DNA of 64,000 nt from Candidatus Woesearchaeota archaeon (GTDB taxonomy: Archaea; Nanobdellota; Nanobdellia; Woesearchaeales; GW2011-AR4), in the NCBI GenBank assembly GCA_002688775.1, contig NZDH01000004.1, positions 54,543 through 118,542 of the forward strand, in the 5' to 3' direction. The position numbers were made by a program, and so were the translations under genes. This document shows positions 4,206 to 61,820 of the stretch, piece after piece. How positions within the stretch are numbered: position 1 is the stretch's first letter; every line of letters starts with the position of its first letter. The notes below the pieces were generated by a model. The model was not told the DNA's origin. It saw only the letters and a program-made list of their open reading frames with translations, and did not search any database.

Positions 4206-4279
4206 ACCACTATTTCTTATTATTTGTGTAACAGTAGAAAGATTTAAATATTTATTTGTATTCCACTAAATAGATTATT

Positions 4280-5746
4280 ATGAATACAACAAAATTCAAA
4301 TCCACAGTTACAAAAGGAAATAATAGAGGCGCTGGTTTTATTCGCATTCCTTTACAGCTTAGAGATAATTTTTCAATTGGAGATCAATACAAAGTAAGTA
4401 TAGTTTCAAAAATAGAATATTATTCAAAAATAAGAGATTATCGTGGTAAAGGCATATTTGTTCCTACTCAAATTAATATAAAAAATAAATTGTATAAAAA
4501 GGAAGTTAAAGTTAAATTAAAGAAAATTGATGGATTTTATACAAAAGTTGGATCAGAAGGTAGAATCTATATACCTAACTCCTATAATCTTAAAAGAAGT
4601 GATATCATTTCAATAAGTGCTACAATCAAGGGAAAGGAAATAATAAAATATCCAAAAATTTATTTAAGAGAAAAAGGTACTTCAAAAGAATTTATCTTTT
4701 ATTTGAATCCAATTCTTCATAATGAGGAAGTCATTATTAAAGTAAATGAAATTTTTCCAAAGAATAAACTTACTCACTCAAATAAATTATTTAATTTGTT
4801 ATTAAAAGATTTTGATTTTGCAGAAATAGATAAGAACAAAATAATTATATTTTATGGGAATAGAGTTCCTATTATTATAAATAATAATATGGATATTAGT
4901 AATTTAGCTTATTATCTTGGATGTTATTTCGCAGATGGAACTAAAAAAGGAAATCATTGGGGTATTTGTGCTTCGACTTTTGAACTAGCAAATTATTTTA
5001 TTAAAAATCATAATAAAATTATATCCGATTCAAATATTATTTTCTCTTTAACATGTACTAAATATCATTTTGATAACATTGAAAAATTAAGAGATGACTT
5101 AATAAATATTTGGTCAAATAATATTAATTCTAATATTAAAATTCGAAGAGTAAGGATAATTAAAACTCATGCAAAACATTCTCCTAATAGAGGCCCATAT
5201 GGTACTTTATCAATGAATGAACCTCGACAGCTTACTCAGATATATTACAATCGGTTGCTTAAATACTTATTCGATAAGACTATGAAAGAATCAAATAAAG
5301 AATTAGCAACTGATTTTATTTGTGGTACTATGGAAGGTGACGGTTGCGTCAATTCAAAAACACATAGCCATATTTTGATATCTACAAATGCAGAAGAGAT
5401 TAAAATTCTAAAAAAGATATGTGATAATAGTTATCTCAAATCAGGAATACGAGCTTGGGAGGGTAGTAAGAATAGAGTTGATTTATTAATTGGCTCTTTA
5501 GAAATAATCAAAAATATTTCCATATTAAAAGATAAGTTATTTAAATATTACCCAAAAAGAAGAAAGATATTAAAAGAGAGGCTGGCAAATACTGGATGTT
5601 CAAGATTTTTATTAGGAAAAACTAAAAAAACTTCAAATTGGCTTATAGGCCAGTTAAATAATTATGGAATATTAGATGGAAAAGGGAATTTAACCAAGTT
5701 TGGAACTAAAATAAAAAAAGATTTAAAGAGCTTCCTAAGTGACTGA
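4280..5746 (+). CDS. free-standing double-motif LAGLIDADG homing-endonuclease-like protein with ~200-aa N-terminal extension
   Basis: Two LAGLIDADG-like motifs, LAYYLGCYFADGTKKG and FICGTMEGDGCVNSK, lie about 125 aa apart. The protein is extremely N/K/I-rich. The N-terminal GFIRIPLQLRDNFSIGDQYKV might be an AbrB-like swapped hairpin, which is a weak call. Confidence 0.55.
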   Translation: MNTTKFKSTVTKGNNRGAGFIRIPLQLRDNFSIGDQYKVSIVSKIEYYSKIRDYRGKGIFVPTQINIKNKLYKKEVKVKLKKIDGFYTKVGSEGRIYIPNSYNLKRSDIISISATIKGKEIIKYPKIYLREKGTSKEFIFYLNPILHNEEVIIKVNEIFPKNKLTHSNKLFNLLLKDFDFAEIDKNKIIIFYGNRVPIIINNNMDISNLAYYLGCYFADGTKKGNHWGICASTFELANYFIKNHNKIISDSNIIFSLTCTKYHFDNIEKLRDDLINIWSNNINSNIKIRRVRIIKTHAKHSPNRGPYGTLSMNEPRQLTQIYYNRLLKYLFDKTMKESNKELATDFICGTMEGDGCVNSKTHSHILISTNAEEIKILKKICDNSYLKSGIRAWEGSKNRVDLLIGSLEIIKNISILKDKLFKYYPKRRKILKERLANTGCSRFLLGKTKKTSNWLIGQLNNYGILDGKGNLTKFGTKIKKDLKSFLSD

Positions 5747-5748
5747 AA

Positions 5749-6222
5749 ATGCAAATAAGAAAAGCAAGCGCAAATGATGCAAAAGGAATCGCTAATGTCC
5801 TGGTCCAGAGTTATAATATCAAGGATATAGAAGAGGGAATGCAGGTTTTTGAAAATGAGACTGCAAAATTCCACCAATATATTGTTGCTGAAGAAGATGA
5901 TAAAATAATTGGAATTATAACTTGGATTGTGCATGGACTGCCTAAACATCAATTATGCGAGCTTGATAGGATTGCTGTACTGCCTGAATTTAGGGGAAAA
6001 GGTGTTTCTAAAGAATTATTTAATGCATTGGTAGAAAATGCCAAAATATTTTATGAAAGACATAATTCCAAACTAAGAAAATTATATTTGTTAACACACG
6101 ATGATAATGCAAGAGCGCATAAATTCTATGAAAAGCTAGGGTTTAAGCATGAAACAACTTTAAAGCAGCATTATTACAAGGATAAGGACGAGTTTGTTTT
6201 TAGTATGTTTTTTATTGATTAA
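5749..6222 (+). CDS. GNAT family N-acetyltransferase
   Basis: The acetyl-CoA-binding segment RIAVLPEFRGKGVSKELF is GNAT-like, and the size fits a GNAT fold. Confidence 0.7.
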   Translation: MQIRKASANDAKGIANVLVQSYNIKDIEEGMQVFENETAKFHQYIVAEEDDKIIGIITWIVHGLPKHQLCELDRIAVLPEFRGKGVSKELFNALVENAKIFYERHNSKLRKLYLLTHDDNARAHKFYEKLGFKHETTLKQHYYKDKDEFVFSMFFID

Positions 6223-6851
6223 CTCATCAAATTCATAAACTCTTCTTTTGTATTGCACTTAAAGTAAGGATTATTCTTTTTTTCATCTCCAATTGTTGAA
6301 GATGGTGTTGAGCCGTAATCGTGGCCGGGGTAAATTTCTATATTATCATCTAATTTTTTGAGTTTTTGCAGACTTTCAAATAATTGAATTGGGTTGCCGC
6401 CAGGCAAGTCTGTCCTGCCGATAGCGCTGACAAATAAGGTATCGCCTGTGATCAATTTGTTTTCAAAAAGAAGGCAGATTGCACCAATTGTATGGCCCGG
6501 TGTGTGGATAATCTTTATTTTTATGTTTCCGACTTTGATTTCTTCATTATCTTTCAATTTTATGAATTTGATTTCGTTTTTTATTGATCTTTTGATTTCA
6601 TCTATTTCCAGTTCATGAAAATAAATTTCTGCTTTTGTTTTATCTGCCAATTCACTGACTTTTTGCACATGATCATAATGGGAATGCGTCAATATTATCT
6701 TTTTTATCTGTAATTTTTCATTGTTTGCAGTTTCTATCAGCTTATCAATATCCCATCCTGCATCTACAATGGCAGCTTCTTTGCTGGCTTCATCTCCAAT
6801 CAAGTAGATGAAGTTCTGCATCGGCCCTACTGGTATTTGCTTGAAGAACAT
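6219..6851 (-). CDS. MBL-fold metallo-hydrolase (glyoxalase II-like)
   Basis: HSHYDH is the HxHxDH zinc motif, and a downstream HTPGHT follows. Confidence 0.75.
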   Translation of the reverse strand: MFFKQIPVGPMQNFIYLIGDEASKEAAIVDAGWDIDKLIETANNEKLQIKKIILTHSHYDHVQKVSELADKTKAEIYFHELEIDEIKRSIKNEIKFIKLKDNEEIKVGNIKIKIIHTPGHTIGAICLLFENKLITGDTLFVSAIGRTDLPGGNPIQLFESLQKLKKLDDNIEIYPGHDYGSTPSSTIGDEKKNNPYFKCNTKEEFMNLMS

Positions 6852-6900
6852 TGTATTAAATAATTTAGAATAATTTATAAATGTTGTTTATTTTTGAAGA

Positions 6901-7425
6901 TTGAATAAGAAAATGCAGAAGTATTCTAAAACCACAATTGAAAGTTATGACAAAACTGTTGATGATTATGCAGATATGGTTAGGACTTTATCCCCGTCTA
7001 AAGAATCTAAGATTTTTCTTTCGTTAATTGGCAGAAATTCCTCAATATTGGATCTTGGTTGCGGGCCTGGAAGAGACTCCAAAATATTTGCTGACAAAGG
7101 GTACAAAGTAGTTGGGATTGATTTATCAAGAAGGATGATAAAATCTGCTAAAAAATTTGTTAAGAATGCGGATTTTAAAGTTATTGATATGATGAATCTT
7201 AATTTAAAGACCAATTCATTTGATGGGATATGGGCTAACGCAGCTCTTCTCCATTTAAGAAAAAGAGATTTTCCTAAAGCACTTAAAGGGGTATACAGGA
7301 TTTTAAAGAAAGATGGGATTTTCTATTTAAGTCTTAAGCAAGGGAAGGGTGAGGGAATTGTATCGGACCACAGATACGGAGGGATTAAGAAATTCTGGTC
7401 ATTTTTTCAGAAAAATGAAATATAA
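6901..7425 (+). CDS. class I SAM-dependent methyltransferase
   Basis: ILDLGCGPGRDS is the glycine-rich motif I, and the acidic motif VVGIDLS follows. Confidence 0.75.
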   Translation: MNKKMQKYSKTTIESYDKTVDDYADMVRTLSPSKESKIFLSLIGRNSSILDLGCGPGRDSKIFADKGYKVVGIDLSRRMIKSAKKFVKNADFKVIDMMNLNLKTNSFDGIWANAALLHLRKRDFPKALKGVYRILKKDGIFYLSLKQGKGEGIVSDHRYGGIKKFWSFFQKNEI

Positions 7426-7535
7426 AAAATATTGGGAAAAAATAGGTTTAGAGTCATCAAAAGTTATGTTAAAAAAGATAAAAATGCTTATTATACCCAT
7501 CCATGGATAAGTGTATTCTGCAAAAAACAATGAAA

Positions 7536-8288
7536 TTATGTAACTTTTCTTGCAAAACTTAAAAATCCAGAATGAATTAAGCCACTACTTTTCGGCCTTA
7601 CTTTTCTGTCTTCAACTTCCCATTCTCTCTGTGTTATTTCAATTGTTTTAAGATAAACAAAATTTTCATTTTTCCTTAAAGTGTTGACAAAATCAGCAAT
7701 TTGAGGTATTGTTGGGCTGTAAGAAACTAAAAATCCTCCTGGTTTTAGCGCTTTTGAGCAACTTTCTAATGCTTTCCATGGTTCAGGCAGATCTAATGTT
7801 ATGACATCTATGTTTTTTTCATCACATTCTTCATAAATATTTTTATTTTCAATCTTTAAATTATTTAAATTCAATAATTCTATATTTTGTTTCACTATTT
7901 CAATAAAATCTTCCCTTATTTCATATGTTATGACTTCTTTTGCAATCTTTGCAAGAAAACAAGCTAAAGCTCCACTTCCAGAACCAGCATCAAGAACTAG
8001 GCTTCCCTTGTTAATGCCTGTTTCTGAAATGATTATCCCAATATCCTTTAATGGTATAATTTGAGCGTCTCTTTTTATTTTTCTATAGACATCTATGAAA
8101 GACGGATCAAATATATGGAATTCTTCATTAGTGTTTGATTTGAGCAAATCACCTTGTTTTGCATTTTTTAGCTCTTCTTTTGATACAAACCCATATTGAG
8201 TATGTAAATCCTGCCCAAGATCTTTGGCATAGAACTTCCTGCCTTGCTTTGTGATAAGTATTTTTTTGATTAGAGCCATAAATAACAA
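7536..8288 (-). CDS. trmI: tRNA (adenine-N1)-methyltransferase TrmI/Gcd14-like
   Basis: VLDAGSGSGALACFLA followed by YEIREDF matches TrmI family members. Confidence 0.7.
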   Translation of the reverse strand: MLFMALIKKILITKQGRKFYAKDLGQDLHTQYGFVSKEELKNAKQGDLLKSNTNEEFHIFDPSFIDVYRKIKRDAQIIPLKDIGIIISETGINKGSLVLDAGSGSGALACFLAKIAKEVITYEIREDFIEIVKQNIELLNLNNLKIENKNIYEECDEKNIDVITLDLPEPWKALESCSKALKPGGFLVSYSPTIPQIADFVNTLRKNENFVYLKTIEITQREWEVEDRKVRPKSSGLIHSGFLSFARKVT

Positions 8289-8322
8289 AGAAAAAGAAGT
8301 CTTATAAAAATTTAATTAAAGC

Positions 8323-8568
8323 TTACTTCCTGCCTTTCTTAGCTGGTGCTGGTGCACTGCAATGTCCACATGTAGGCTTTGCTAATTTAAGAAGACCTTT
8401 TAGCACTAACAAAGCACCGATCACTACCCAAATATCCCATTGGGTGTAGAGTCTTACCAGAATTAATATTGCACCTATAACTATGAACTTTGCGCCCCAG
8501 CACTTGCTGCAGACACCATCATGACATACTTCGCCCATATTAGACACCTCCTTTGAGTCTATATGCAC
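8323..8568 (-). CDS. small membrane protein with paired Cys motifs
   Basis: A 2-TM hairpin is flanked by CHDGVCSKC and CGHCS. Confidence 0.4.
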
Positions 8569-8813
8569 TTATTGGAATTAGCACTATATAAAGCTTTCTA
8601 TTTGAGTTTTACTGATAAAATAGAAACATTTAAAAATAATGAACATAAGTTCTTAATAAAAGTGTAGATTATTGTAAATAATGAACTAAAATATTATAAT
8701 AATAAACTATAATATTAAAAAAATGATTATGTATATGGTTAAAACAAATAGTATATAGTAATTAATGAATATGTATTGGAAAATAATGTATGAATATTAA
8801 TAAAAAATAAACA

Positions 8814-9332
8814 ATGCTATCATTATCGGATAATGAGTTCAGTGTACTTAGCTTTCTGGTTAGAAATTTCACTGAAAGGCTTACAATAAGGAGCATCGCC
8901 CAAAGGCTTGGTTTTAGTGCAGCTGGTGTCTTCAATATTCTAAAGAAACTTGAAAAACGGAATATTGTTGTTGGGCAAAAGCTTGGGACAGGATTGTTTT
9001 ATTCTGTCAATTTTGAAAACAAGATAGGCAAGCATCTGGCTGCGATTGTCCTATTATATTCTGATGAGAAAATAACTTTTGATGTTGAGCAAATAAAACA
9101 GGCAAAGGCTGCTATTTTTGATAAAAAAAGTCTGCTTCTTATTACTGATAATGTAACTGAGATTAGTGTTTCTATACCAGATGTAAATGTCATTGTAAAA
9201 ACAGAGGATGAAATTTCTGATTTATTTAAGAAAAAAGATCAGGAAACCCTTCAATTACTGAAAAAAGGATCTGTCTTGTTTGGAGAAGATAAATTTGTCG
9301 AAATAATTAAAAAATGCAGTTCAGGATTTTAA
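8814..9332 (+). CDS. winged-helix DNA-binding protein, translationally coupled to the giant protein downstream
   Basis: The N-terminal IRSIAQRLGFSAAGVFNILKKLEKRNIV is wHTH-like. The TAA stop is at 9330-9332 and the next ATG is at 9334. Confidence 0.5.
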   Translation: MLSLSDNEFSVLSFLVRNFTERLTIRSIAQRLGFSAAGVFNILKKLEKRNIVVGQKLGTGLFYSVNFENKIGKHLAAIVLLYSDEKITFDVEQIKQAKAAIFDKKSLLLITDNVTEISVSIPDVNVIVKTEDEISDLFKKKDQETLQLLKKGSVLFGEDKFVEIIKKCSSGF

Positions 9333-9333
9333 C

Positions 9334-12300
9334 ATGAAAAAACTGAATAAAATATTAAGTGTAATGATTTTGATACTTGCATTTGTGTTATTTTCATCTA
9401 TTGTTTATGCTGCTCCTCTGACTGACATGTTTGTAGGCGGATTAATACAAATTAATGATTTCTTTGAAAATGAGCAATTTGCTCCTTATGCAACTGCAAT
9501 TGACTTTTTCTTCTTTACATTACTGTTCACAGCTATATATATGATGGGTGCAAGGTATGCATTTAAGGAAATTAAAAGACCAGAGCAAGTAATTGTGATT
9601 TTACTCGGATTAATGACTGGGTTTTTGCTTGTGTTAGGTGGTTTTTCAGCAACTATCATTCTTCCTTACATACAATGGCTTTTGTATTTGCTGCTGTTCT
9701 GGATAATCTGGAAATTATTAAGCGGAATAAAAAATCCATTCTGGAGATTTATATTGGCATTGCTGTTGACTTTGCTGCTGATTGCATTGTGGCAAGGGAT
9801 GTTTAATGCATTAACTACACCAGATGTTGGAGCTCCACAAGTTGGTGGATTTTTTGGTTCTATTGGCAAATTCTTTAGAGATCTTGGAAGCAGTTTTACA
9901 GGAATTAAGATGCCAGGAGTCGGAGTGCCTGGAATTCCTGATGCTTTACAGGATCTGTTAGGAGAGCCTGGCGGGGTTGGAGCTGGGGAACCTACTGGGC
10001 CTGAAGGGTTGCCTGTGGTTACGACGCCAACTGGACCAACTGTTGTGGAAGAAGACGGGGGATTTTCTTTAGGGAATTTGTGGTGGATTCCTATTTTAGC
10101 GGCATTATTGTGGGCAGGTAATTATGCGCGCAAGAAGGGATGGCATAAATGGAGACCACGTAAAAAAGATAAACCAAAAACAATAGATGAAGTTAAAGCA
10201 GAGATAGATGATATAATTAGGAAAAAAGCAAATTCTAAAAGAAATATTATAGCAAGAAGCGATGAAAAGAATCAAATTATTCAAGCTGAAGATAGAAGAA
10301 CTGCTTTTTTAAGCAAATTAAGAGATAAAGATCCTGCAAATCTGTTTGGAGATGAAGCTAGAAGAGTAATTGATGCCGAAGGTGGAGCTTTTAAGGAACT
10401 TCTTGACAAAGAAATTCAATTAGTAGATGAACTTAAAAAATTGAAAGGTATAGAGAAAGATTTGTATTTGAAATTAGATCTATGGCAACGATCTCTTCAA
10501 GGTACAGTTGATATAAGTCCAGAAGTAAATGGCCTTAAAATTTTGATTGGTAATAAGACAACTATTCGTGACATAATAAATATGGGTATAATATGGCTAA
10601 CTGTAATCTGCTATGATATTGAAAAACGAAATGAGGTATTGACTAAAGAATTAGGAAGCTTATTGGATGATGAAGATAAAATTGAGGAGCTTGTCCAAGG
10701 CAAATTTACAACTGTTAAAAATGATGAAAGAAAATTAAGTCATTATAATTCAACTGAAATTGAATATATTGAATTATTAGAGCAAAAAATTGATGAGCAG
10801 ATAAATAAATTAAATGAATTAAAAAGAAAAATTGAAGGAACTCCACATACAGGACCTTATGGTGCACCATACGGAGCGCCTTATGGAGCGCCAGGTGGAA
10901 GGCGTGGAGGACCTTATGGAGCTCCTTACGGGGCACCTTATAGTGGTCCTGGTAGTGCAGGACCAACACCTTCTGGAGGGACTGGAAGTCCTTATGGGGC
11001 TCCCTATAGTGCTGCTGGAGCTGGAGGAACTTATGGGGCACCATACGGAGCGCCTTATGGGGCTCCTTATGGAGCGCCAGGTGGAAGGCGTGGAGGACCT
11101 GGTAGAACGACTCCACCTAGAGGTAGAAGAAGAAGTGGCAGACTTAGAATTCTAATGCTCAGCCCAACGCACCCACATGCAAGCAATGGGGTTTCTGAAG
11201 TTGTGAAAAATTTATCTTTAGCTCTAAATTCAATCGGTGTAGATGTTGAGGTACTAACTAAATGGTTTAATGAGCCATATTATTACTATGATAAAATAAA
11301 TTCTGCAGAACAAAAATTTGACACTATTGGAGAATTTTTAAATTCAAAGAACAAAGATTATTATGATTTCATACATTCTCACACATTTACATTTTCACAG
11401 ATTTCTGATACTGGCGATGGAGAAACACCTTGGAATAAATTGTTATCCCATTTTAATGTTCCATCAGCTTATACAGTTCATTCTTTAGATATTCATGAAG
11501 CTTTAACATGTAAGTGGACTTCAACAAATTACAATTATCATAAGTGGGTTGGTGAACAACTTCAACCAGTAGTTTTTGATAGTGTAAACTGCATAATTCA
11601 ATTGACAAAAACCTATAAGGAATTAACTGAAGAAATGTATCCAGGAAAAAATTACAAGTATAAATCGGTTATAATCCCTAACGGTATAATTTTAAAAAAT
11701 AGATATTCAAAACGAACACCAAATCCAAGTGAGATTAATATGCTATACTTGGGTAGATTCGAAAGAAGAAAGGGAATATACGAATTATGTGTTGCTTTTG
11801 GGACCCTTACAAAAAAATATCCAAATTTAAAGCTCCATCTTGTAGGTAGTGGTCAACCGAGAACTCCAATTCCATGGTTTAATCGGGTTGATGTAGAAAC
11901 TAAAGTCATGAAAAGAATACTTAAAAGAGGGAGTGTACCAAGTGATAGGTATGTGCTCCACGGTGTAAAGCGGGGTACAGAGAAGGAAAACATAATTAAT
12001 GATGCTGATTTTGTCATATTACCAAGCTATTTTGAAACTTTCTGCCTAGTTGGCTTAGAAGCGATCAATCAAGCTAGACCACTAATATCATCAAAGGGTC
12101 CGGCTCTTAATGAAGTATACATAGAGAGCGGATTGGCTTATCCAATAGACTTTGGGGAGTTAAGGTACAATTCCGGAGTAAATTCACAGGGCTTTGTTAG
12201 GCTTAGAGTTGAAAAAATAGTTGAAGCAGTTTCAGGTTTCATAGATAACCTTGATGAATATAGGCAAAGATCTGAACAAGTTTGGCAACTAGTCCAAAGA

Positions 12301-15591: not shown

Positions 15592-16089
15592 CTATGAACC
15601 TCTAGAGGCAATCAAACCAATTGTAAAAATAGCTATTGCAAAAATCAAAACCGTGCCAAGAAATTTTGGATGCAGAATGAGATTTATTGATTTTGACAAG
15701 TCTTGTGGATTTTCTTGTTCTCCGATTTGATCTTTTACTTTTACTCCAGCACCGATTATAATTACAACTAAAACAATTACAAAAAATATGACTTTTACCG
15801 AATGGAAAGAATCTAAGTCGCCACCCAACATTTTCAATGCGACATTCAATAAAACTACAAACAAGAAAACAACTGCAATGAAGGGTGCTGTGCTTGCAAC
15901 TACGCTTGTTGCAATAGGCGATATCAATACAAAAATACCCATCAATAACCCTACAATGAGGTAAATGAACTTATTATCGCCAAGAGCTTTTGTCCATAAG
16001 ACAACAGCATATACTACTATCCAAACAAAAAGAAAAACAAATATGCTTGAGAAATACTGCAGACCTGATACATCTAAGAACGTTGCCAT
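15592..16089 (-). CDS. multi-pass membrane protein, paralog C of a three-gene tandem family
   Basis: IFVFLFVWIVVYAVVLWTKALG aligns with the other two paralogs. Confidence 0.6.
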   Translation of the reverse strand: MATFLDVSGLQYFSSIFVFLFVWIVVYAVVLWTKALGDNKFIYLIVGLLMGIFVLISPIATSVVASTAPFIAVVFLFVVLLNVALKMLGGDLDSFHSVKVIFFVIVLVVIIIGAGVKVKDQIGEQENPQDLSKSINLILHPKFLGTVLIFAIAIFTIGLIASRGS

Positions 16090-16115
16090 ATTAGTAAATC
16101 AATATTTATTGGGGC

Positions 16116-16736
16116 TTAATGTCCTCCTTTGCCGCCGCCAAAAAGCTTGCTGAAGTCTGCACCTAATCGGCCCATTGTCGATCTATCTTCTTTTTCTTTT
16201 GAATCGCTTGTGATCCATGCTATTATTATGCCGAATACCAAGAGCATTATAACAACAGCTATACTTTCACTTCCAAAGAAACGCGTCAATGTATTGCCGA
16301 AATAGCCAGACCACCATCCAGCAGCTCCGCCGAATATAAGTATAATTACAATAAAGGAAAAAAATGCAACCCATCCCGGCATAGATAACCCTAAAAATAC
16401 CTTATCCTGGGCAAACACACCTATTAAGATTAGTAGAAAAATTATTGCAACAAGGACTACTGAGATTGATGGCAGGGCGTTGCTTATAATCAACACAGGA
16501 TCAGCATAAGCAGGAAATCTGCCGGTTATATGGGGGATGACAACAAGCAAACCAACCACAATCGAAACGACAATGTTAAGGTTTTTCTTCGCTGCCCCTA
16601 GAATTTCTGATTTTTGAAGGATTGCGTAAATAATAACAAAGATAAGTAAAAAGACAAGTAATACCTCTACCCTCCATCTGTCCAAAAGTAATATGAAATA
16701 ATCAAGCTGATAAGCTGGAGCAGCCATTTTTTGCAC
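16116..16736 (-). CDS. multi-pass membrane protein, paralog B
   Basis: VLLVFLLIFVIIYAILQKSEILG...KKNLNIVVSIVVGLLVV aligns with paralog A. Confidence 0.6.
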   Translation of the reverse strand: MQKMAAPAYQLDYFILLLDRWRVEVLLVFLLIFVIIYAILQKSEILGAAKKNLNIVVSIVVGLLVVIPHITGRFPAYADPVLIISNALPSISVVLVAIIFLLILIGVFAQDKVFLGLSMPGWVAFFSFIVIILIFGGAAGWWSGYFGNTLTRFFGSESIAVVIMLLVFGIIIAWITSDSKEKEDRSTMGRLGADFSKLFGGGKGGH

Positions 16737-16781
16737 CTCTTTATATTAATTATTTTTATATTAGTATATAAACTTTATGAA

Positions 16782-17366
16782 TTATTTATGTTGTGATACT
16801 GCCTTTGATGGTTCTTTTGTAGCATAGACTATGAAAACTACCATCAATCCAAGTAAAATAATAGATCCAGCCAGTACATCACCGCCTCCTGAACCTGAAA
16901 ATCCACCTAAACGCTCCAGCCAGGTCTGACCATCGCTGGTTTTTATTGAATCAAGAAAAATACCAAGGATTGCTATGAATACTATGATCATAAATGTAAT
17001 TTTCCAGCCTCCTTGCAAATGAGTAGGTTCTCCTTCTTTGTGGAAAGAGCCTATTAATAGAAGGAATAGAACGCTGAAGAAAAGGACAATAACAGCTTTG
17101 GCTACAGTTTCATTTATAATTTCCACTAATTCCCTGGTTGCAATCACCAAGAACGCTATTACAAAAGAAGCAATTGCATTAAGGTTCTTCTTCGGAAAAT
17201 TTTTTCCTCCGATTTCTTCAGTGCCCAGAACTTTTGTCTTTTCAAGTATAGCAAAAACAATAGTAAAAACAAGCAGGAAAGGCAATACAACATCAAATAA
17301 TCCAATCTGGTCAAAGAAAGTGATTACTTCTCTAAAAGGAGAATCTGCTGTAACGTGGCTAGTCAT
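16782..17366 (-). CDS. multi-pass membrane protein, paralog A
   Basis: FLLVFTIVFAILEKTKVLG...KKNLNAIASFVIAFLVI aligns with paralog B. Confidence 0.6.
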   Translation of the reverse strand: MTSHVTADSPFREVITFFDQIGLFDVVLPFLLVFTIVFAILEKTKVLGTEEIGGKNFPKKNLNAIASFVIAFLVIATRELVEIINETVAKAVIVLFFSVLFLLLIGSFHKEGEPTHLQGGWKITFMIIVFIAILGIFLDSIKTSDGQTWLERLGGFSGSGGGDVLAGSIILLGLMVVFIVYATKEPSKAVSQHK

Positions 17367-18065: not shown

Positions 18066-20297
18066 ATGAAAAGAACGCATACTTGCGGAGATTTGACTGA
18101 TAAAGATGTCAATAAAAAGGTGACTTTATCGGGCTGGTGCTCTACAAGAAGAGACCATGGCGGTGTAATTTTCATTGACTTAAGGGACAGATATGGATTG
18201 ACACAAGTAGTTTTTGATCCGAGCCATAACCTGGAAAGCCATAAGACTGCAGAAACTTTGAGGAGAGAATATGTAATCACAGTTGAGGGTCATGTCAGGA
18301 AAAGACCTGAAGGCATGGAAAATAAAAATTTACCAACAGGCAAGATAGAAGTTCTTATGGACGAAATCCTTAGCGTCAACAAAGCACAAACTCCCCCTTT
18401 GGAGATTGATGATAACATTGAAGCTTCTGAAGATATAAGGCTGAAATACAGATATCTTGACCTGAGAAGGAATAAGATGCAAAAGCAGCTGATGTTCAGG
18501 CACCAGCTTTCAACTGCAATAAGGGAATACCTAAATCAGCAAGGCTTTATTGAGATTGAAACACCGATGATGATCAAGACTACTCCAGAAGGAGCCAGAG
18601 ACTATTTAGTGCCAAGCAGAATCCATCCTGGAAAATTTTATTCATTGCCGCAATCTCCGCAGATATACAAGCAGATCTTGATGATTGCTGGCTTTGATAA
18701 ATACTACCAGATAGCAAGATGCTTGAGAGACGAAGATTTGAGAACTGACAGGCAGCCAGAGCATACTCAAGTTGATCTAGAGATGTCTTTTGCTGATGTT
18801 GAAGATATATTTCACATTACAGAAGGCCTTATCAAAAATGCTTTCAGAAAACTTCTAAATAGAGATGTGAAAACTCCTTTCAAGAGATTTTCTTATGCCG
18901 AATCAATGGAAAAATACTGCACAGACAAGCCGGACATAAGATTTGGGATGGAATGCTGCACTGTTACAGACATAGTCAAAGATTCTGAATTCAAAGTGTT
19001 TCTTGAAGTCATAAAGAAAGGAATTGTAAAAGTGTTGAATGCAGAGAGTTGCGGAGAAAAATTAAGCAGGAAGCAAATCGACGAGTTAATTGAATTTGCC
19101 CAGCAGAATGGCGCAAAAGGACTTGCGTGGATGAAAGTAACAAAGAATGGATTGGAAAGCAATATTGCGAAGTTTTTTCCTGAAAAAGTGCAGAAAGAAT
19201 TAATCAAAAGAGCTAAAGCAAAGCATGGAGATTTACTGCTGTTTGCAGCTGACAATCCAAAAATAGTAAATGACGTGCTTTCAAAAATCAGGTTAAGATT
19301 AGGAAATTCCTTCGGATTGATAAAGAAAGATAATTTTGATTTTTGCTTTATAACAGACTATCCTATGTTTGAATGGAACGAAGACGAGCAAAAATGGGAT
19401 TTTAGCCATAATCCTTTCACAATGCCAAGGGAAGAATACTGGAAATATCTGGAAACAGATCCAGGCAAGGTAATCTCTTATCAATATGATTTTGTCATGA
19501 ACGGATCTGAACTTTTCTCAGGCTCTGTGCGAAACAATATTCCTGAGATGCAGATGAAAGCCTTCAAAGTTACCGGAATGCCTGAGAATGAGATAAAAGA
19601 AAAGTTTGGGTTTTTGCTTGAAGCGTATAAGTATGGAGCGCCAAGGCACGCTGGATTTGGTATGGGTTTTGACAGATTGGCATCGCTGATGCAGGGGATC
19701 CATGACATAAGGGAAGTTATCGCTTTTCCAAAGAACAAGGCAGCTGAAAATCCGATGGATGATTCGCCAAGCGAAGCAAGCGAAAGACAACTTCAGGAAC
19801 TCCATATCAAACTGGATTTTGTCAAAGATTCAGGAAATGTTGTGTTGGGTAAAATTAAAGATGTTTTGGATAAAGAAAAGATCGAGTATGAAGTTTTAGA
19901 GCATAAAGCTGTTTTCACAAGCAAGGAAGCTGCTCAAATTAGAGGAACAGAATTAAAGCAAGGTTGTAAAGCTTTGGTTTGCAAAACAGAAGAAGGTTTT
20001 ATTCAGGCTGTTGTTAGCGGTGAAAAAGAGCTTGACTTGAAAAAACTGCAGAAAATTACATTATTTAAAAATTTAGAGCTTGCTAATGCCAAAGATGTGA
20101 AAAAGGCAACTGGCTGCAATATAGGAAGTGTTCCACCATTTGGAAATCTACTGGGATTGAAGGTTTATTTCGATAAATCTGTTGCACAAAATGAAATTGT
20201 TGCCTTCAATGCAGGAGCACACACAAAAAGCATTAAAATGAAAGGCAAGGATTTGGTTAAAGTTGTTAATCCTATTGTTGGGGAGTTTTCTAAGTAG
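18066..20297 (+). CDS. aspS: bacterial-type aspartyl-tRNA synthetase (with GAD insertion domain) fused to a C-terminal YbaK/ProX-like aminoacyl-tRNA deacylase domain
   Basis: Class II aaRS motifs and an anticodon-binding N-terminus are present, the GAD domain spans ~aa 290-420, and the canonical AspRS end ERQLQELHIKL is intact. A further ~150 aa carry GCKALVCK and GCNIGSVPPFG, which are YbaK-like K-x-L-x-x-K and G-x-x-x-G-x-x-P-F-G. Confidence 0.8.
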   Translation: MKRTHTCGDLTDKDVNKKVTLSGWCSTRRDHGGVIFIDLRDRYGLTQVVFDPSHNLESHKTAETLRREYVITVEGHVRKRPEGMENKNLPTGKIEVLMDEILSVNKAQTPPLEIDDNIEASEDIRLKYRYLDLRRNKMQKQLMFRHQLSTAIREYLNQQGFIEIETPMMIKTTPEGARDYLVPSRIHPGKFYSLPQSPQIYKQILMIAGFDKYYQIARCLRDEDLRTDRQPEHTQVDLEMSFADVEDIFHITEGLIKNAFRKLLNRDVKTPFKRFSYAESMEKYCTDKPDIRFGMECCTVTDIVKDSEFKVFLEVIKKGIVKVLNAESCGEKLSRKQIDELIEFAQQNGAKGLAWMKVTKNGLESNIAKFFPEKVQKELIKRAKAKHGDLLLFAADNPKIVNDVLSKIRLRLGNSFGLIKKDNFDFCFITDYPMFEWNEDEQKWDFSHNPFTMPREEYWKYLETDPGKVISYQYDFVMNGSELFSGSVRNNIPEMQMKAFKVTGMPENEIKEKFGFLLEAYKYGAPRHAGFGMGFDRLASLMQGIHDIREVIAFPKNKAAENPMDDSPSEASERQLQELHIKLDFVKDSGNVVLGKIKDVLDKEKIEYEVLEHKAVFTSKEAAQIRGTELKQGCKALVCKTEEGFIQAVVSGEKELDLKKLQKITLFKNLELANAKDVKKATGCNIGSVPPFGNLLGLKVYFDKSVAQNEIVAFNAGAHTKSIKMKGKDLVKVVNPIVGEFSK

Positions 20298-22009: not shown

Positions 22010-22294
22010 ATGAATATAGACAGAAAACTATTAGAGCATGTAGCTGAAGTTGCAAGAATAAAGCTAAGTGAAGAAGAAATCAAGAAATTCTTGCCTCAGC
22101 TTGAAGAAGCTTTAGAATTCTTTTCAAAATTAAAGGAAGTTAATACAGATGATGTAAAGCCAAGCTTCCAGCCTGTTGAATTGAAAAATGCAATGAGGGA
22201 AGACAAGGAAAAAAAGTGCATTTCGCAGGATGATGCATTATCATTAACTGAGCATAAAAAAGACGGCTATTTCAAAGGGCCGAGGGCAGTTTGA
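22010..22294 (+). CDS. gatC: Asp/Glu-tRNA amidotransferase subunit C
   Basis: A 94-aa protein with [32 protein letters not shown] sits immediately upstream of gatA. Confidence 0.75.
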
Positions 22295-22791
22295 TGAAAT
22301 CCAGCTTATTTTTAATATTATTTTTGGTATTTATAATAGGATGCAACAGCGAGGTAAAAATGAAAATTGCAACAATAGAAACTGATAAAGGAATTATAAA
22401 AGCAGAGCTTTTCACGGATAAAGCACCCATCACAACAACAAATTTCATTGACTTGGCTAATTCCGGATTTTATAACGGATTAACTTTTCATAGAGTTGAG
22501 CCTGGTTTTGTTGTGCAGGGCGGTGATCCTAATGGAGATGGTACAGGGGGTTCTGGAAAAAATATTCAATTGGAGATCCATCAAGACTTAAAGCATGTGA
22601 AAGGTGTGCTGGCAATGGCAAGATCTCAAGATCCAAACAGCGCTTCATCACAATTTTACATTACATTAGCCTCAGCATCTTTTCTTGACGGGCAGTATGC
22701 AGTTTTTGGCAAAGTGATTGAAGGGATGGAATTTGTTGAACAAATTAAAGTTGGGGATAAGATGAACAAAATTACGATAAGTGAAAAATAA
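22291..22791 (+). CDS. secreted cyclophilin-type peptidyl-prolyl isomerase (signal peptide with lipobox-like IIGC)
   Basis: [15 protein letters not shown] is the cyclophilin core. A hydrophobic N-terminus ends in GCNS. It overlaps gatC by 4 nt and gatA by 1 nt. Confidence 0.8.
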
Positions 22792-24236
22792 TGCAATGCA
22801 GTGAATTTGTTGAAAAAGTAAAAAATAATGAGATAGATATTGTTGAGCATACTCATAAAGTCATTGAGGAGTGCAAAAAAATAAACAAGGATTATAATTA
22901 TTTCAATGTTGTCTCTGAAGAACTGGCTTTAGTCCAGGCAAACAAGCTAAAAAAACTGATAAACGGCAAGAAAGCAGATAATAAAAAATTACTGGGAGTT
23001 CCTGTTTCTGTTAAAGACAATATCTGCGTCAAGGGCGTTGAAAGCACTGCAGGCTCCAGAATCTTGAAGGGCTATAAGCCGTTATTCAATGCGACAGCGG
23101 TTGAAAATGCAATAAACCAAGGCGCAATCGTAATAGGAAAAACAAGCCAGGATGAATTCGGCTTTGGGGGCTTTTCTGTCAATGCTGGATTAGGATTTAA
23201 AATTCCTAAAAACCCTTTTGACAAGGAGAGAAGCTGCGGTGGAAGCTCCGGAGGTGCTGGTGGTTTAGCCCAGAAGGCTACTTTCCCCCACATTGCGCTG
23301 GGAGAGAGCACTGGCGGCAGTATTGCATGTCCTGCAAATTTTTGTGGAGTTTTTGGCTTAACACCAACTTATGGAATTGTTTCCAGATACGGCTTGATTG
23401 ATTATGGAAATTCCCTGGACAAGATAGGAACATTAGGAAAAAGTTCTAATGATGCTGGATTATTGCAAGAAGTTATTTCTGGTTATGATGAGAAAGACAG
23501 CACTTCCCTAAATGTTGAAAATGAAAGATATACTGAATACCTGGGAGGATCTGTGGAAGGTTTGAAGGTAGGCATCATAAAAGAAGCGTTTGGAAAGGGA
23601 AATGAAAAAGCAGTAGAAAATCAAGTTTACAAAGGAATTGAAACATTAAAGGAGAAAGGCGTTAAAGCTGAAGAAATATCCTTAGAAATGCCCATAAAAT
23701 ATGGATTAGCAACTTATTACATGATTGCAACTTCCGAAGCCTCTACAAACCTTGCCAAATACTGCGGAATGAGGTATGGAGCTGCTGAGAAATTAAGAGG
23801 GAGCTTTAATGAATATTTCACAAAAGTAAGAAGCAAAAATTTTGGCGATGAAGCTAAAAGAAGGGTAATTCTTGGAACTTTTGCAAGAATGGCCGGACAT
23901 AGAGATGCTTTTTACATTAAAGCTGCCAAAGTCAGGACAAAAATAATCAATGAATACAAGAAGGCTTTCAAACAATTTGATGCCTTGATCAGCCCAACAG
24001 TTCCAATATTGCCTCCGAAGTTTTCTGAAATTGAAAAATTAACGCCATTGCAGAATTACATGATAGACTCAATCCTGGTAGGCCCGAATATTGCTGGTTT
24101 GCCCCATCTAAGCGTGCCAATTGGTTATGATCAGAATCTTCCGGTCGGGATGCTGCTGACAGGAGATCATCTGCAAGAAAAAAAATTACTGCAATTGGGA
24201 AATTTGTTTGAAACAACAAAATTCCACTCATCTTAG
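22791..24236 (+). CDS. gatA: Asp/Glu-tRNA amidotransferase subunit A
   Basis: The amidase signature GGSSGG and the Ser-cisSer-Lys context are present. Confidence 0.85.
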   Translation: MQCSEFVEKVKNNEIDIVEHTHKVIEECKKINKDYNYFNVVSEELALVQANKLKKLINGKKADNKKLLGVPVSVKDNICVKGVESTAGSRILKGYKPLFNATAVENAINQGAIVIGKTSQDEFGFGGFSVNAGLGFKIPKNPFDKERSCGGSSGGAGGLAQKATFPHIALGESTGGSIACPANFCGVFGLTPTYGIVSRYGLIDYGNSLDKIGTLGKSSNDAGLLQEVISGYDEKDSTSLNVENERYTEYLGGSVEGLKVGIIKEAFGKGNEKAVENQVYKGIETLKEKGVKAEEISLEMPIKYGLATYYMIATSEASTNLAKYCGMRYGAAEKLRGSFNEYFTKVRSKNFGDEAKRRVILGTFARMAGHRDAFYIKAAKVRTKIINEYKKAFKQFDALISPTVPILPPKFSEIEKLTPLQNYMIDSILVGPNIAGLPHLSVPIGYDQNLPVGMLLTGDHLQEKKLLQLGNLFETTKFHSS

Positions 24237-24386: not shown

Positions 24387-25802
24387 ATGAAAAAATTCAC
24401 TAGCGATGTTGTCATTGGACTTGAGATCCATGTAGAGCTAGATACAAAAACTAAATTATTTTGTGGATGCTCTAAAAAGGGAGGTGAAGAACCAAACTCA
24501 AGGACTTGTGAAGTTTGTCTTGGCCATCCGGGAAGCAAGCCTGTATTGAACAAAAAAGCTGTTGAATTTGCCCTGAAATTAGGCCTGGCCTTGAATTGTG
24601 ACATCTCCAATGAATTGATTTTCTCAAGAAAATCCTATTTTTATCCTGACATGTCTAAGAATTATCAGATTACGCAATATGAAATCCCTCTTGGCAAGGG
24701 AGGAAATTTAAAATTGAAAGAAGGAAAGGAAATAGGGCTTATAAGAATCCATATGGAGGAAGATCCTGCTGCATTAGTTCATCCTGATGGATTAAAGGAA
24801 GGCTCTTATGTTTTGGTTGATTACAACAGAAGCGGGAATCCTTTGGTTGAGATCGTTACAGAACCGGATTTGACAAGCCCTGATGAAGCAAGGGATTTCA
24901 TGAAGCAATTGATCACTGTCTTAAGCTATCTTGAGATTTTTGACGAGAATAACGGAATAATAAAAGCTGATGCAAATGTCTCAGTAAAAGAAAGTGATTA
25001 TACACGAGTTGAGATAAAAAATATAACTGGATTTAAAGAAATTGAGAGAGCTTTGTTTTATGAAGTTGACAGGCAAAAAGAAGAAATTAAGCAAAGTAAA
25101 AAGGTTGAACAGGAAACAAGAGCCTGGGATTCTGAAAAAGGAGTTACTCTTTCTTTGAGAAAAAAAGAGACTGAAGAAGATTATGGCTATATAATTGATC
25201 CTGACCTGACTGTTACAGAAATTACCGATGAATTAATTGATAAAATCAAGAAAGAAATGCCTGAATTAGCCCAGGACAAAGTAAAGAAATTCATTGAAAA
25301 GCATAAAATCAAGAAAGAATATGCTGAGATTCTTGCTGCGCACAAGCAGCTTGCAGAAATGTTTGAGGATGTTGCAGAGCATATTGATCCTGTTTTAGCT
25401 GCAAAATGGATAAGAGGGGAATTAGTGAGAGTACTAAACTATGCCAAGAAAGAATTGCATGAAGTTGACATCAATAAAAAGCACATGATTGACCTGCTGA
25501 AATTGGTCGAAAGCAAAAAGATAACTGACAATGTTGCTGCAAAATTACTTGAGAAATTGATTGAAAAGCCTTTTGATGTCATTGAACATGTCAAGAAAGA
25601 AGGTCTTGAAGCTGTTTCTGATGTTTCAGAGCTGGAGAAGTACTGCAAAGAAGCGATAAAGGAGAATCCACAAGCTGTTGAGGACTACAAAAAAGGAGAA
25701 AAAAAGGCTTTGAATTTTATTGTTGGTTCTGTGATGAAGAAGACTCAAGGAAAGGCAACTCCTAAAGAGGTTAATGAGATTATTCTGAGATTAATAAGAT
25801 AA
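24387..25802 (+). CDS. gatB: Asp/Glu-tRNA amidotransferase subunit B
   Basis: VIGLEIHVELDTKTKLFCGCS is the GatB N-terminus, and a GatB/YqeY tail follows. Confidence 0.85.
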   Translation: MKKFTSDVVIGLEIHVELDTKTKLFCGCSKKGGEEPNSRTCEVCLGHPGSKPVLNKKAVEFALKLGLALNCDISNELIFSRKSYFYPDMSKNYQITQYEIPLGKGGNLKLKEGKEIGLIRIHMEEDPAALVHPDGLKEGSYVLVDYNRSGNPLVEIVTEPDLTSPDEARDFMKQLITVLSYLEIFDENNGIIKADANVSVKESDYTRVEIKNITGFKEIERALFYEVDRQKEEIKQSKKVEQETRAWDSEKGVTLSLRKKETEEDYGYIIDPDLTVTEITDELIDKIKKEMPELAQDKVKKFIEKHKIKKEYAEILAAHKQLAEMFEDVAEHIDPVLAAKWIRGELVRVLNYAKKELHEVDINKKHMIDLLKLVESKKITDNVAAKLLEKLIEKPFDVIEHVKKEGLEAVSDVSELEKYCKEAIKENPQAVEDYKKGEKKALNFIVGSVMKKTQGKATPKEVNEIILRLIR

Positions 25803-31287: not shown

Positions 31288-31389
31288 TAGCGGAGGCTAG
31301 ATTTGAACTAGCGACCTATGGGTTATGAGCCCATCGGGCACTCCTGATTGGGCGCCTGGAACAGAGTCCAAACTCTGCCCTACTCCGCT
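31288..31389 (-). tRNA. tRNA-Met(CAT), initiator-like (A1:U72, three G-C pairs closing the anticodon stem), with ~27-nt insertion in the D-arm region
   Basis: The minus-strand read is AGCGGAG-TA-[GGGC...48 nt...GCCC-G]-ATGGG-CTCATAA-CCCAT-AGGTC-GCTAG-TTCAAAT-CTAGC-CTCCGCT-A. The acceptor, anticodon and T arms are canonical. The D-arm segment is about 27 nt too long. Confidence 0.75.
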
Positions 31390-61683: not shown

Positions 61684-61691
61684 AAAATAAA

Positions 61692-61764
61692 CGCCTCCGA
61701 CCAGACTCGAACTGGTGACCTTATCGTTAACAGCGATACGCTCTACCTACTGAGCTACAGAGGC
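61692..61764 (-). tRNA. tRNA-Asn(GTT)
   Basis: The minus-strand read is GCCTCTG-TA-GCTC-AGTAGGTA-GAGC-G-TATCG-CTGTTAA-CGATA-AGGTC-ACCAG-TTCGAGT-CTGGT-CGGAGGC-G. Confidence 0.8.
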
Positions 61765-61820
61765 ACATACATTTTTAGATTAAAAGTTTAATTTATATAG
61801 GTTTCGATGAGAGAAAGTAA

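Follow-up and report, generated by a model that had tools for sequence, protein, structure and literature searches.

An INS-superfamily domain fused to a bacterial-type aspartyl-tRNA synthetase in Woesearchaeota: a candidate tethered aminoacyl-tRNA deacylase

The gene at positions 18066–20297 of a 64,000-nt stretch of a Candidatus Woesearchaeota genome (contig NZDH01000004.1; the whole stretch is hereafter called the window) encodes a bacterial-type aspartyl-tRNA synthetase (AspRS) with a C-terminal editing domain of the INS superfamily, and we designate it aspS::edit. The two parts form one polypeptide; the C-terminal domain has the YbaK/ProX fold, retains the catalytic motifs of the superfamily, is under purifying selection, and recurs with AspRS as its exclusive synthetase partner. 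The explanation that we favor, with a probability of roughly 0.55, is that this domain is a tethered aminoacyl-tRNA deacylase proofreading the products of AspRS, its hydrolytic activity, its substrate, and its coupling to the synthetase all being predicted.

Architecture of the fusion protein

The open reading frame (ORF) listing of the window revealed no interruption in the gene, and the domains of its product are given in Table 1. The AspRS part (residues 1–584) scored 835 bits against the NCBIfam bacterial aspS equivalog NF001750 (cutoff 443) and 754 bits against TIGR00459 (cutoff 374), and its end was marked by ERQLQELHIKL at residues 572–582. In the C-terminal part, QGCKALVC was located at residues 632–639 and GCNIGSVPPFG at residues 683–693. 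As judged from the profiles, the Pfam and NCBIfam scores of the protein are far beyond chance. A sequence-only reading of the window had described a bacterial-type AspRS with a GAD domain and a YbaK/ProX-like extension, quoting ERQLQELHIKL, GCKALVCK, and GCNIGSVPPFG; the domain scores bore out this architecture for a single 743-residue ORF, and the motifs were in the translation where it had placed them.

In the AlphaFold2 (AF2) model of the full-length protein (predicted template modeling score, pTM, 0.67), the predicted local distance difference test (pLDDT) was below 50 at residues 561–563, 565–571, and 578–590, and the flanks on both sides were confident. The low confidence of the linker between two confident bodies suggests that the editing domain is flexibly tethered and not rigidly docked. 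A Foldseek search with this model found no solved structure covering both the AspRS and the editing parts.

Fold, catalytic motifs, and family placement of the editing domain

The C-terminal domain matched PF04073 with 106–107 bits (cutoff 25.5) over profile positions 1–122 of 123. Its AF2 model, built from a 29-sequence alignment, had a pLDDT of 94.4 and a pTM of 0.88, and Foldseek assigned a probability of 1.00 to its matches with proteins of the YbaK/ProX fold. The template modeling (TM) score was 0.84 for Aeropyrum pernix APE2540 (1WDV) and Thermus thermophilus ProX (2CX5, and 2Z0K with Ala-sulfamoyl-adenosine), 0.79 for Haemophilus influenzae YbaK (1DBU), 0.78 for Legionella lpg1207 (3OP6), and about 0.69 for the INS domains of prolyl-tRNA synthetase (ProRS). 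The fold anticipated from sequence was thus recovered in the model.

A conserved lysine and a GXXXP loop are the catalytic hallmarks of the INS superfamily (PMC11286415). The corresponding K635 was invariant in 29 of the 29 family members aligned, and in a wider comparison a lysine occupied this position in 26 of 27 fused, 123 of 123 free-standing, and 9 of 9 otherwise arranged members (158 of 159). G687 and P691 of the GXXXP loop were also invariant, and H613, R626, K635, G687, P691, G693, F714, and G717 were near-invariant, alike in fused and free-standing members. Of these, Arg626 (R44 in domain numbering) was family-specific, being absent from 3OP6, 2CX5, and the YbaK-like sequence in the alignments. 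Across 108 fusions, the mean column identity was 0.83 in the editing domain and 0.72–0.78 in the two AspRS catalytic halves and GAD, indicating that the editing domain is constrained at least as strongly as the essential synthetase. On these alignments, the domain is under strong purifying selection.

The closest relative by sequence was 3OP6, with 69 bits in a single-sequence comparison and 115 bits against the family profile. The family profile gave 76–81 bits for YbaK, 76 for T. thermophilus ProX/ProXp-x, 72 for APE2540, 55 for INS, and 47 for Atu3699. For Cc ProXp-ala (5VXB/1VJF), the single sequence gave 23 bits and the family profile 38, below all of these; the residues specific to that family are H23, K50, R80, and H130 in Cc numbering (PMC11286415). 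Two identities were therefore rejected. YbaK proper was not supported, since TIGR00011 gave 73–78 bits against a cutoff of 153 and NF007951 gave 26–31 against 243; the YbaK/ProX label of the sequence-only reading accordingly holds for the fold and the catalytic residues, but not for YbaK itself. ProXp-ala, suggested by the JGI label "Ala-tRNA(Pro) deacylase" on several relatives, was unsupported by the profile ranking, and the best match of P0298, named "PrdX deacylase domain-containing protein", was 3OP6 and not ProXp-ala. By its profile scores, the editing domain is an INS-superfamily member of an uncharacterized family, neither YbaK nor canonical ProXp-ala.

This family is large, with 3649 cluster representatives at 50% identity at E ≤ 1e-3 and 894 at E ≤ 1e-10. 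Proteins with three tandem copies (448 and 491 aa) or two copies of the domain also occurred, as did fusions to a DksA/TraR zinc finger plus a BON domain, fusions to RuvX, and placement after a GmrSD_N nuclease domain (proteins of odd architecture: P0122, P0128, P0161, P0245, P0182, and P0210).

Genuineness of the fusion

An ORF with 100% identity in one frame was present in L001 (GCA_030745935.1), an independent assembly of the same organism deposited as a Candidatus Woesearchaeota metagenome-assembled genome (MAG), and the ortholog in L002, with 77% identity, was likewise intact in one frame. A search with the whole protein retrieved more than 100 clusters of 740–745 aa and 55–100% identity, all containing the four Pfam domains, and the named ones were called [quoted passage not shown]. 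The full-length orthologous fusion clusters, of 725–765 aa, numbered 108.

A search with the C-terminal domain alone retrieved short records of 138–168 aa from the same lineage, named "YbaK/EbsC family protein", one of which was 99% identical; P0270, P0272, P0275, P0276, and P0280 were records of this kind at the fusion position. The short gene calls in L001 (4589–5044) and L002 (6001–6417) were orthologous to window positions 19842–20297 and comprised only the last 138–151 codons. They are the 3′ ends of intact ORFs of 743 and 744 aa, the 1.8-kb AspRS part of which was left uncalled, and hence the short records in L001 and L002 are annotation artefacts. Such partial gene calls inflate the number of apparently free-standing YbaK-like proteins in Woesearchaeota, and AspRS may seem to be missing there.

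To survey the phyletic distribution, one genome per GTDB species was scanned with the domain alignment, which yielded 148 relatives; the best 80 were classified by in-frame ORF extension and tblastn. In-frame aspS::edit fusions accounted for 68 of these 80 species-level loci. A bacterial-type AspRS with GAD was the partner in 57 loci, all from DPANN archaea (Woesearchaeota/Nanoarchaeota/Nanoarchaeia) and including single-cell genomes; a bacterial-type AspRS without GAD in five loci from Roizmanbacteria, Patescibacteria, and similar taxa; and an archaeal-type AspRS in four loci from Roizmanbacteria and Gottesmanbacteria. The other two in-frame fusions were at incomplete loci. In two further loci (L084 and L085), aspS and the editing gene abutted as separate ORFs, and in ten the editing gene was genuinely free-standing. 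The survey thus placed the fusion in both DPANN archaea and bacteria of the Candidate Phyla Radiation (CPR).

These results bear on whether aspS and a YbaK-like gene are in truth separate and only look joined, through an error in sequencing or assembly or through read-through of a real stop codon. The short MAG annotations and the truly split versions in L084 and L085 could be taken as signs of such an artefact. However, the full ORF lies in a single frame beneath short records such as P0270 and P0280, the in-frame fusions come from many independent studies and include the single-cell genomes L051 and L061, and the linker residues are conserved (mean column identity 0.74 over the 108 fusions). 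We therefore regard the chance of an artefact as negligible, and a frameshift or two-gene origin, the outcome that would have undone the sequence-only reading, was rejected.

Exclusive association with AspRS

Among the 188 nearest cluster representatives of the editing domain at 50% identity, about 21 were AspRS fusions, and AspRS was the sole synthetase partner. Three AspRS backbones, of two evolutionarily distinct AspRS types, carried the domain, across two domains of life (Archaea and CPR bacteria). This exclusive partnership, together with the two loci in which aspS and the editing gene are split, constitutes Rosetta-stone evidence that the function of the family is tied to AspRS. Fused domains occurred at no fewer than four places in a neighbor-joining tree, interleaved with free-standing ones, which, given that the tree is noisy, is an indication of repeated fusion and fission. 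In L085 (2370–3686), another woesearchaeote, the AspRS was of the archaeal type and the editing gene stood behind it as an ORF of its own. Identity between DPANN and CPR editing domains was 45–54%. A bacterial-type AspRS in an archaeon, the arrangement in L085, and this identity point to movement of aspS, of the editing module, or of both across the boundary between Archaea and Bacteria, a transfer that would have taken place between co-occurring ultra-small lineages.

The free-standing members bring in another explanation, in which the domain is a generic trans-editing factor that rides on AspRS and has no special relation to tRNAAsp or tRNAAsn. Its targets could be, for instance, the Ala-, Abu-, Ser-, or Thr-tRNA produced by an archaeal-type ProRS lacking INS or by another synthetase, and the domain would have been fused in the genome-reduced DPANN and CPR for co-expression, stability, or generic tRNA affinity. 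The identity of active-site residues in fused and free-standing members agrees with this idea, as do the unrelated neighborhoods of the free-standing members: no aspS, proS, or other synthetase gene was found around P0286, P0297, P0291, and seven DPANN loci. The nearest characterized structural relative, T. thermophilus ProX (2CX5/2Z0K, the latter with an Ala-adenylate analogue), is assigned in a review to ProXp-x, an Abu/Ala-tRNA deacylase, and the JGI label mentioned above would also fit. Complexes that bring editing factors together with unrelated synthetases are also known: in Trypanosoma brucei, MCP3, the type to which eukaryotic ProXp-7 belongs, is housed in a multi-synthetase complex that includes AspRS (PMC11286415). 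[quoted passage not shown] However, random piggy-backing should sample other synthetases, and the domain was found only with AspRS, on three independent backbones and also as split adjacent genes. The family is far from Cc ProXp-ala and closest to the uncharacterized 3OP6, a profile distance that makes the "Ala-tRNA(Pro) deacylase" labels weak, and synteny with gatCAB and asnS is conserved in DPANN. We consider a generic factor possible but rather doubtful.

Synthetase part and tRNA specificity

With the full-length model, Foldseek aligned approximately 585 residues to the AspRSs of T. thermophilus, Escherichia coli, and Pseudomonas aeruginosa, with target-normalized TM scores of 0.83–0.84 and 44–47% identity. 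QSPQ, Q199, K202, R221, D237, E239, H448, R489, and R537 were invariant in 48 relatives. We take the eight numbered residues to be those of the Asp/ATP site of E. coli AspRS, as reportedly described by Eiler et al. in 1999. From its sequence, the synthetic site of the fused AspRS looks canonical.

The best sequence match of the anticodon-binding domain in the PDB was the non-discriminating (ND) AspRS of P. aeruginosa (4WJ3/4WJ4). Alignment showed RRDH31GG and RPEG83 to be common to the window AspRS and the ND-AspRSs of P. aeruginosa and mycobacteria; the Elizabethkingia protein 6WOM, annotated as "Aspartate--tRNA ligase", had RDKG and lacked RPEG. His31 was invariant in the 48 relatives and Gly83 was not. 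In 2006, Bernard et al. reportedly implicated His31 and Gly83 (P. aeruginosa numbering) in the recognition of tRNAAsn. This signature makes an ND-AspRS plausible, not proven, and the window AspRS probably acts on both tRNAAsp and tRNAAsn; the sequence-only reading, which had called the enzyme probably non-discriminating, gains this signature as its support. In P0189, a CPR fusion partner, Met replaced His31.

Neither an AsnRS nor a second AspRS was found in the 64-kb window. A gene for tRNA-Asn(GTT) was present, with G1:C72, G73, and no encoded CCA. No tRNAAsp for comparison of the acceptor stems was found in 32 loci. A 53-nt tRNA-like match elsewhere in the window (Table 1) may be a tRNA fragment or a degenerate or unusual tRNA.

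Gene neighborhood and the asparagine pathway

As the sequence-only reading had noted, gatC, gatA, and gatB are located downstream of the fusion; their coordinates put them at 1.7–5.5 kb on the same strand. The order of genes on this strand was Translin, aspS::edit, GNAT acetyltransferase, Ham1/ITPase, a coiled-coil ORF, gatC, cyclophilin, gatA, and gatB. In at least 28 of the 57 DPANN fusion loci, the three gat genes were found downstream at a distance of no more than 5 kb; this count is a minimum, since many contigs stop short of the region. In L062, a woesearchaeal locus, aspS::edit, gatC, gatA, gatB, and asnS formed a same-strand cluster (3231–10013) with gaps of 8–295 nt, and both the direct and the indirect routes to Asn-tRNA are thus encoded beside the fused AspRS.

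This neighborhood raises the possibility that the domain is a non-hydrolytic holder of the acceptor end, which would bind the aminoacylated CCA end and shield Asp-tRNAAsn or hand it to GatCAB as a scaffold of the transamidosome. The gat genes downstream, which directly abut the fusion in L062, would suit such a role. The transamidosome formed by bacterial-type ND-AspRS is only a dynamic one, and the enzyme has to keep hold of Asp-tRNAAsn until GatCAB takes over (PMC3367201); other C-terminal fusions of synthetases with amidotransferase modules exist, namely AspRS-GatC (NF009460) and GlnRS-Yqey of Deinococcus radiodurans (PMC1865053). Nevertheless, the invariance of the catalytic Lys and the GXXXP loop across the 108 fusions and the family is unexpected for a pure binding module, and fusions occur in CPR without nearby gatCAB and with an AspRS lacking the ND signature next to AsnRS. 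A purely holding function is accordingly improbable.

A genuine AsnRS accompanied the editing domain in L007, L062, and L084, each either scoring above the NCBIfam cutoff or sharing 66% identity with an AsnRS that does, and L085 contained a partial AsnRS ORF above the cutoff of TIGR00457 and below that of NF003037. This co-occurrence indicates that a tie to AsnRS-less transamidation is not general. No gatCAB genes were found near the CPR fusions. The link to transamidation drawn by the sequence-only reading was therefore not upheld as a general one, in view of these four loci, the CPR fusions, and the missing His31 of P0189.

The closest woesearchaeal lineage without the editing domain had an unfused sister AspRS (P0097) with 71% identity, and in its loci (L088/L089) an asnS gene (9841–11145; 506 bits, cutoff 414) occupied the position of the editing domain, 61 nt after aspS. 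No adjacent asnS was found in the other unfused relatives, L096 and L097. The rule that the fusion replaces AsnRS was rejected, since L007, L062, L084, and L085 combine both and L096 and L097 have no adjacent asnS.

In CPR, the fusion was directly followed by a gene for Peptidase_S11 (D-Ala-D-Ala carboxypeptidase), for archaeal-type and GAD-less bacterial-type AspRS alike. This gene was located at 5232–6215 in L005 and at about 5.5–6.5 kb in L063, L068, L070, L077, L079, L081, and L086. In P0192 and P0246, the editing-domain family was fused to the N-terminus of Peptidase_S11. The occurrence of both aspS::edit and edit::Peptidase_S11 fusions suggests an ancestral gene order aspS-edit-dac that was fused either way; a link of this arrangement to D-amino acids is speculation.

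Other features of the window are as follows. The cyclophilin-type peptidyl-prolyl isomerase gene overlapped the gatC stop by 4 nt and ended at the first base of gatA, and the gatC-cyclophilin-gatA arrangement was kept in L001 and L002. Read from a TTG start, the cyclophilin ORF had a hydrophobic, lipobox-like N-terminus, and the public call begins at an internal Met without it. Three consecutive ORFs on the opposite strand (165, 206, and 194 aa) encoded small, very hydrophobic proteins whose relatives lacked Pfam annotation; they were kept beside the Translin-aspS block in L001, L002, and L097. Other genes of the window were archaeal in flavor, with an archaeal helicase domain, and HerA and Cdc6-like neighbors were present in relatives.

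Table 1. Positions of the fusion gene, its domains, and other features in the window
Feature	Position	Strand	Basis
aspS::edit fusion gene	18066–20297	+	Single ATG-to-stop ORF, 743 aa + stop codon
OB-fold anticodon-binding domain, aa 19–101, with His31 (RRDHGG) and Gly83 (RPEG)	18120–18368	+	Pfam PF01336 (tRNA_anti-codon), E 7e-17
Class IIb catalytic core, aa 121–558, split by GAD insertion	18426–19739	+	Pfam PF00152 (tRNA-synt_2), E 2e-115
GAD insertion domain, aa 316–405, hallmark of bacterial-type AspRS	19011–19280	+	Pfam PF02938, E 3e-27
AspRS C-terminal tail and linker, aa 561–590, predicted flexible	19746–19835	+	AF2 pLDDT
INS-superfamily (YbaK/ProX-fold) editing domain, aa 591–743 (Pfam match 613–732)	19836–20294	+	PF04073 (tRNA_edit), E 1.4e-30
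Lys635 codon, superfamily catalytic lysine, motif QGCKALV	19968–19970	+	Alignment and translation
GXXXP loop, Gly687-Ser-Val-Pro-Pro691	20124–20138	+	Alignment and translation
gatC	22010–22294	+	Pfam GatC, E 1e-18
Cyclophilin-type peptidyl-prolyl isomerase gene	22291–22791	+	
gatA	22791–24236	+	Pfam Amidase, E 5e-107
gatB	24387–25802	+	Pfam GatB_N, E 1e-98; GatB_Yqey, E 3e-41
tRNA-Asn(GTT), presumed second substrate of a non-discriminating AspRS	61691–61765	-	ARAGORN; Rfam 71.7 bits
Three hydrophobic ORFs	15592–17366	-	
tRNA-like match, 53 nt	31292–31344	-	Rfam 30.3 bits (gathering 29), model positions 4–67; not called by ARAGORN

Proposed function of the editing domain

In the proofreading explanation that we favor, the anticodon-binding domain of AspRS would pick tRNAs with GUC and GUU anticodons, and the aminoacylated product would be let go quickly, as by other class II enzymes. 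The editing domain, held at high local concentration on a tether of about 30 residues, would then probe the 3′ end of tRNAAsp or tRNAAsn once release is complete or under way, and the Lys635/GXXXP site would cleave the ester bond if the aminoacyl group were wrong for the tRNA. Such "tethered trans-editing" would be like that proposed for the protist ProXp-ala-ProRS fusions; for ProXp-ala joined to ProRS, the deacylation rate is about 5-fold that of the free domain, and editing is expected to take place mainly in trans (PMC11286415). The sequence-only reading had suggested proof-reading in cis or recycling of mischarged tRNA as a possible role. INS enzymes also act on tRNAs other than tRNAPro, as do ProXp-ST1/2 and ProXp-x, as well as FthB on fluorothreonyl-tRNAThr.

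As for the substrate, we lean slightly towards an aminoacyl group that AspRS occasionally attaches to tRNA and that is non-cognate, non-protein, or of the D-form, because the fusion is found on AspRSs that have the ND signature as well as on those that lack it, and both near gatCAB and away from it. Soutourina et al. reportedly showed in 2000 that E. coli AspRS charges D-Asp. Asp-tRNAAsn that is not taken up by GatCAB is our second guess. In its strict form, in which the domain would be an Asp-tRNAAsn-specific deacylase and a checkpoint of the indirect pathway destroying the intermediate that GatCAB fails to capture, this proposal is tentative and somewhat unlikely; it is kept alive by the operon context in DPANN, the toxicity of Asp-tRNAAsn, and the precedent of GluRS2. 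Free Asp-tRNAAsn is known to be toxic (PMC3241645, PMC3367201), and overexpressed ND-AspRS is toxic to E. coli (PMC3367201).

Several points weigh against proofreading by the fused domain. The Asp-binding residues are canonical and invariant, so that there is no visible reason for editing, and we know of no amino-acid discrimination problem of AspRS. The active-site residues are the same in the 123 free-standing members, the neighborhoods around P0286, P0297, P0291, and the seven DPANN loci showed no synthetase, and the basic function may therefore not be specific to AspRS. The Asp-tRNAAsn variant is further opposed by the presence of AsnRS beside the fusion or the aspS/edit pair in the four loci named above, by the features of P0189 and the CPR loci, and by the acceptor end of the tRNA-Asn, which offers no obvious handle for distinction from a typical archaeal tRNAAsp.

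Comparison with known systems

The protist ProXp-ala-ProRS proteins (Plasmodium, Trypanosoma, and Leishmania) resemble aspS::edit in that an INS-superfamily deacylase is linked to the terminus of a class II synthetase. Their editing is expected to occur mainly after product release, with activity enhanced by the synthetase body (PMC11286415, PMC11295145). They differ in that the partner is ProRS, with its well-known misactivation of Ala and Cys, and the domain is N-terminal and of the ProXp-ala family, whereas in aspS::edit the partner is AspRS, for which no editing is known, and the domain is C-terminal and of a different, uncharacterized INS family. The INS domain of bacterial ProRS shares the fold and the Lys/GXXXP apparatus and is likewise part of the chain of a class II synthetase. 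In contrast to the C-terminal appendage of aspS::edit on its low-confidence linker, it is inserted between motifs 2 and 3, rigidly placed, and performs cis-editing of Ala-tRNAPro, and the sequence similarity is low (profile, 55 bits). The free-standing INS proteins (3OP6, 2CX5/TTHA1699, 1WDV, YbaK 1DBU, and 2DXA) are alike in fold across the whole domain (TM scores 0.78–0.84), but all are single-domain proteins, and the closest, 3OP6, is uncharacterized.

The bifunctional AspRS-GatC protein (NF009460/PRK12820) also combines a bacterial-type AspRS with a C-terminal module in the context of tRNA-dependent amidation, but its module is GatC and not a deacylase, and gatC is a separate gene in the window. 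The window protein scored 582 bits against NF009460 (cutoff 1379), the match ending at residue 581, position 615 of the 723-position profile. GluRS2 and ND-AspRS of Helicobacter pylori are similar in concept, since the misacylating synthetase itself limits the release of a toxic intermediate: GluRS2 hydrolyzes excess Glu-tRNAGln (PMC3241645), and ND-AspRS retains Asp-tRNAAsn, whose hydrolysis was not detectable (PMC3367201). Unlike in aspS::edit, no dedicated editing domain is involved in these safeguards.

Significance

Editing domains of synthetases, free-standing INS relatives, ProRS-INS, and ProXp-ala-ProRS fusions are already known; an INS-type domain on AspRS appears to be undescribed. 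To our knowledge, textbooks place AspRS, a class IIb enzyme, with the synthetases that lack editing and do not require it. In open-access papers and bioRxiv, no published link of YbaK/PF04073 with AspRS, DPANN, or CPR was found, in line with the earlier impression that the pairing was new. According to a 2024 review, only seven families of synthetases have editing domains, and the INS relatives other than those on ProRS consist of a single domain. An editing domain on AspRS would surprise a synthetase specialist. The fusion sequences are abundant in public databases; because they are named plainly "aspartate--tRNA ligase", or are truncated to YbaK/EbsC records of the last ~150 residues, the architecture is invisible there.

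A conserved and catalytically intact editing domain on AspRS in dozens of DPANN and CPR organisms would mean either that AspRS has an unrecognized fidelity problem in these genome-reduced scavengers or that the tRNA-dependent Asn pathway has an unrecognized hydrolytic safeguard. If the domain were an Asp-tRNAAsn checkpoint, AspRS would be an eighth family to add to the synthetases that have hydrolytic editing domains, and this would be the first "editing" directed not at an error but at a misacylation that the cell needs. For the large uncharacterized INS family whose nearest solved structure is 3OP6, the fusion with AspRS provides, through guilt by fusion, the first functional handle.

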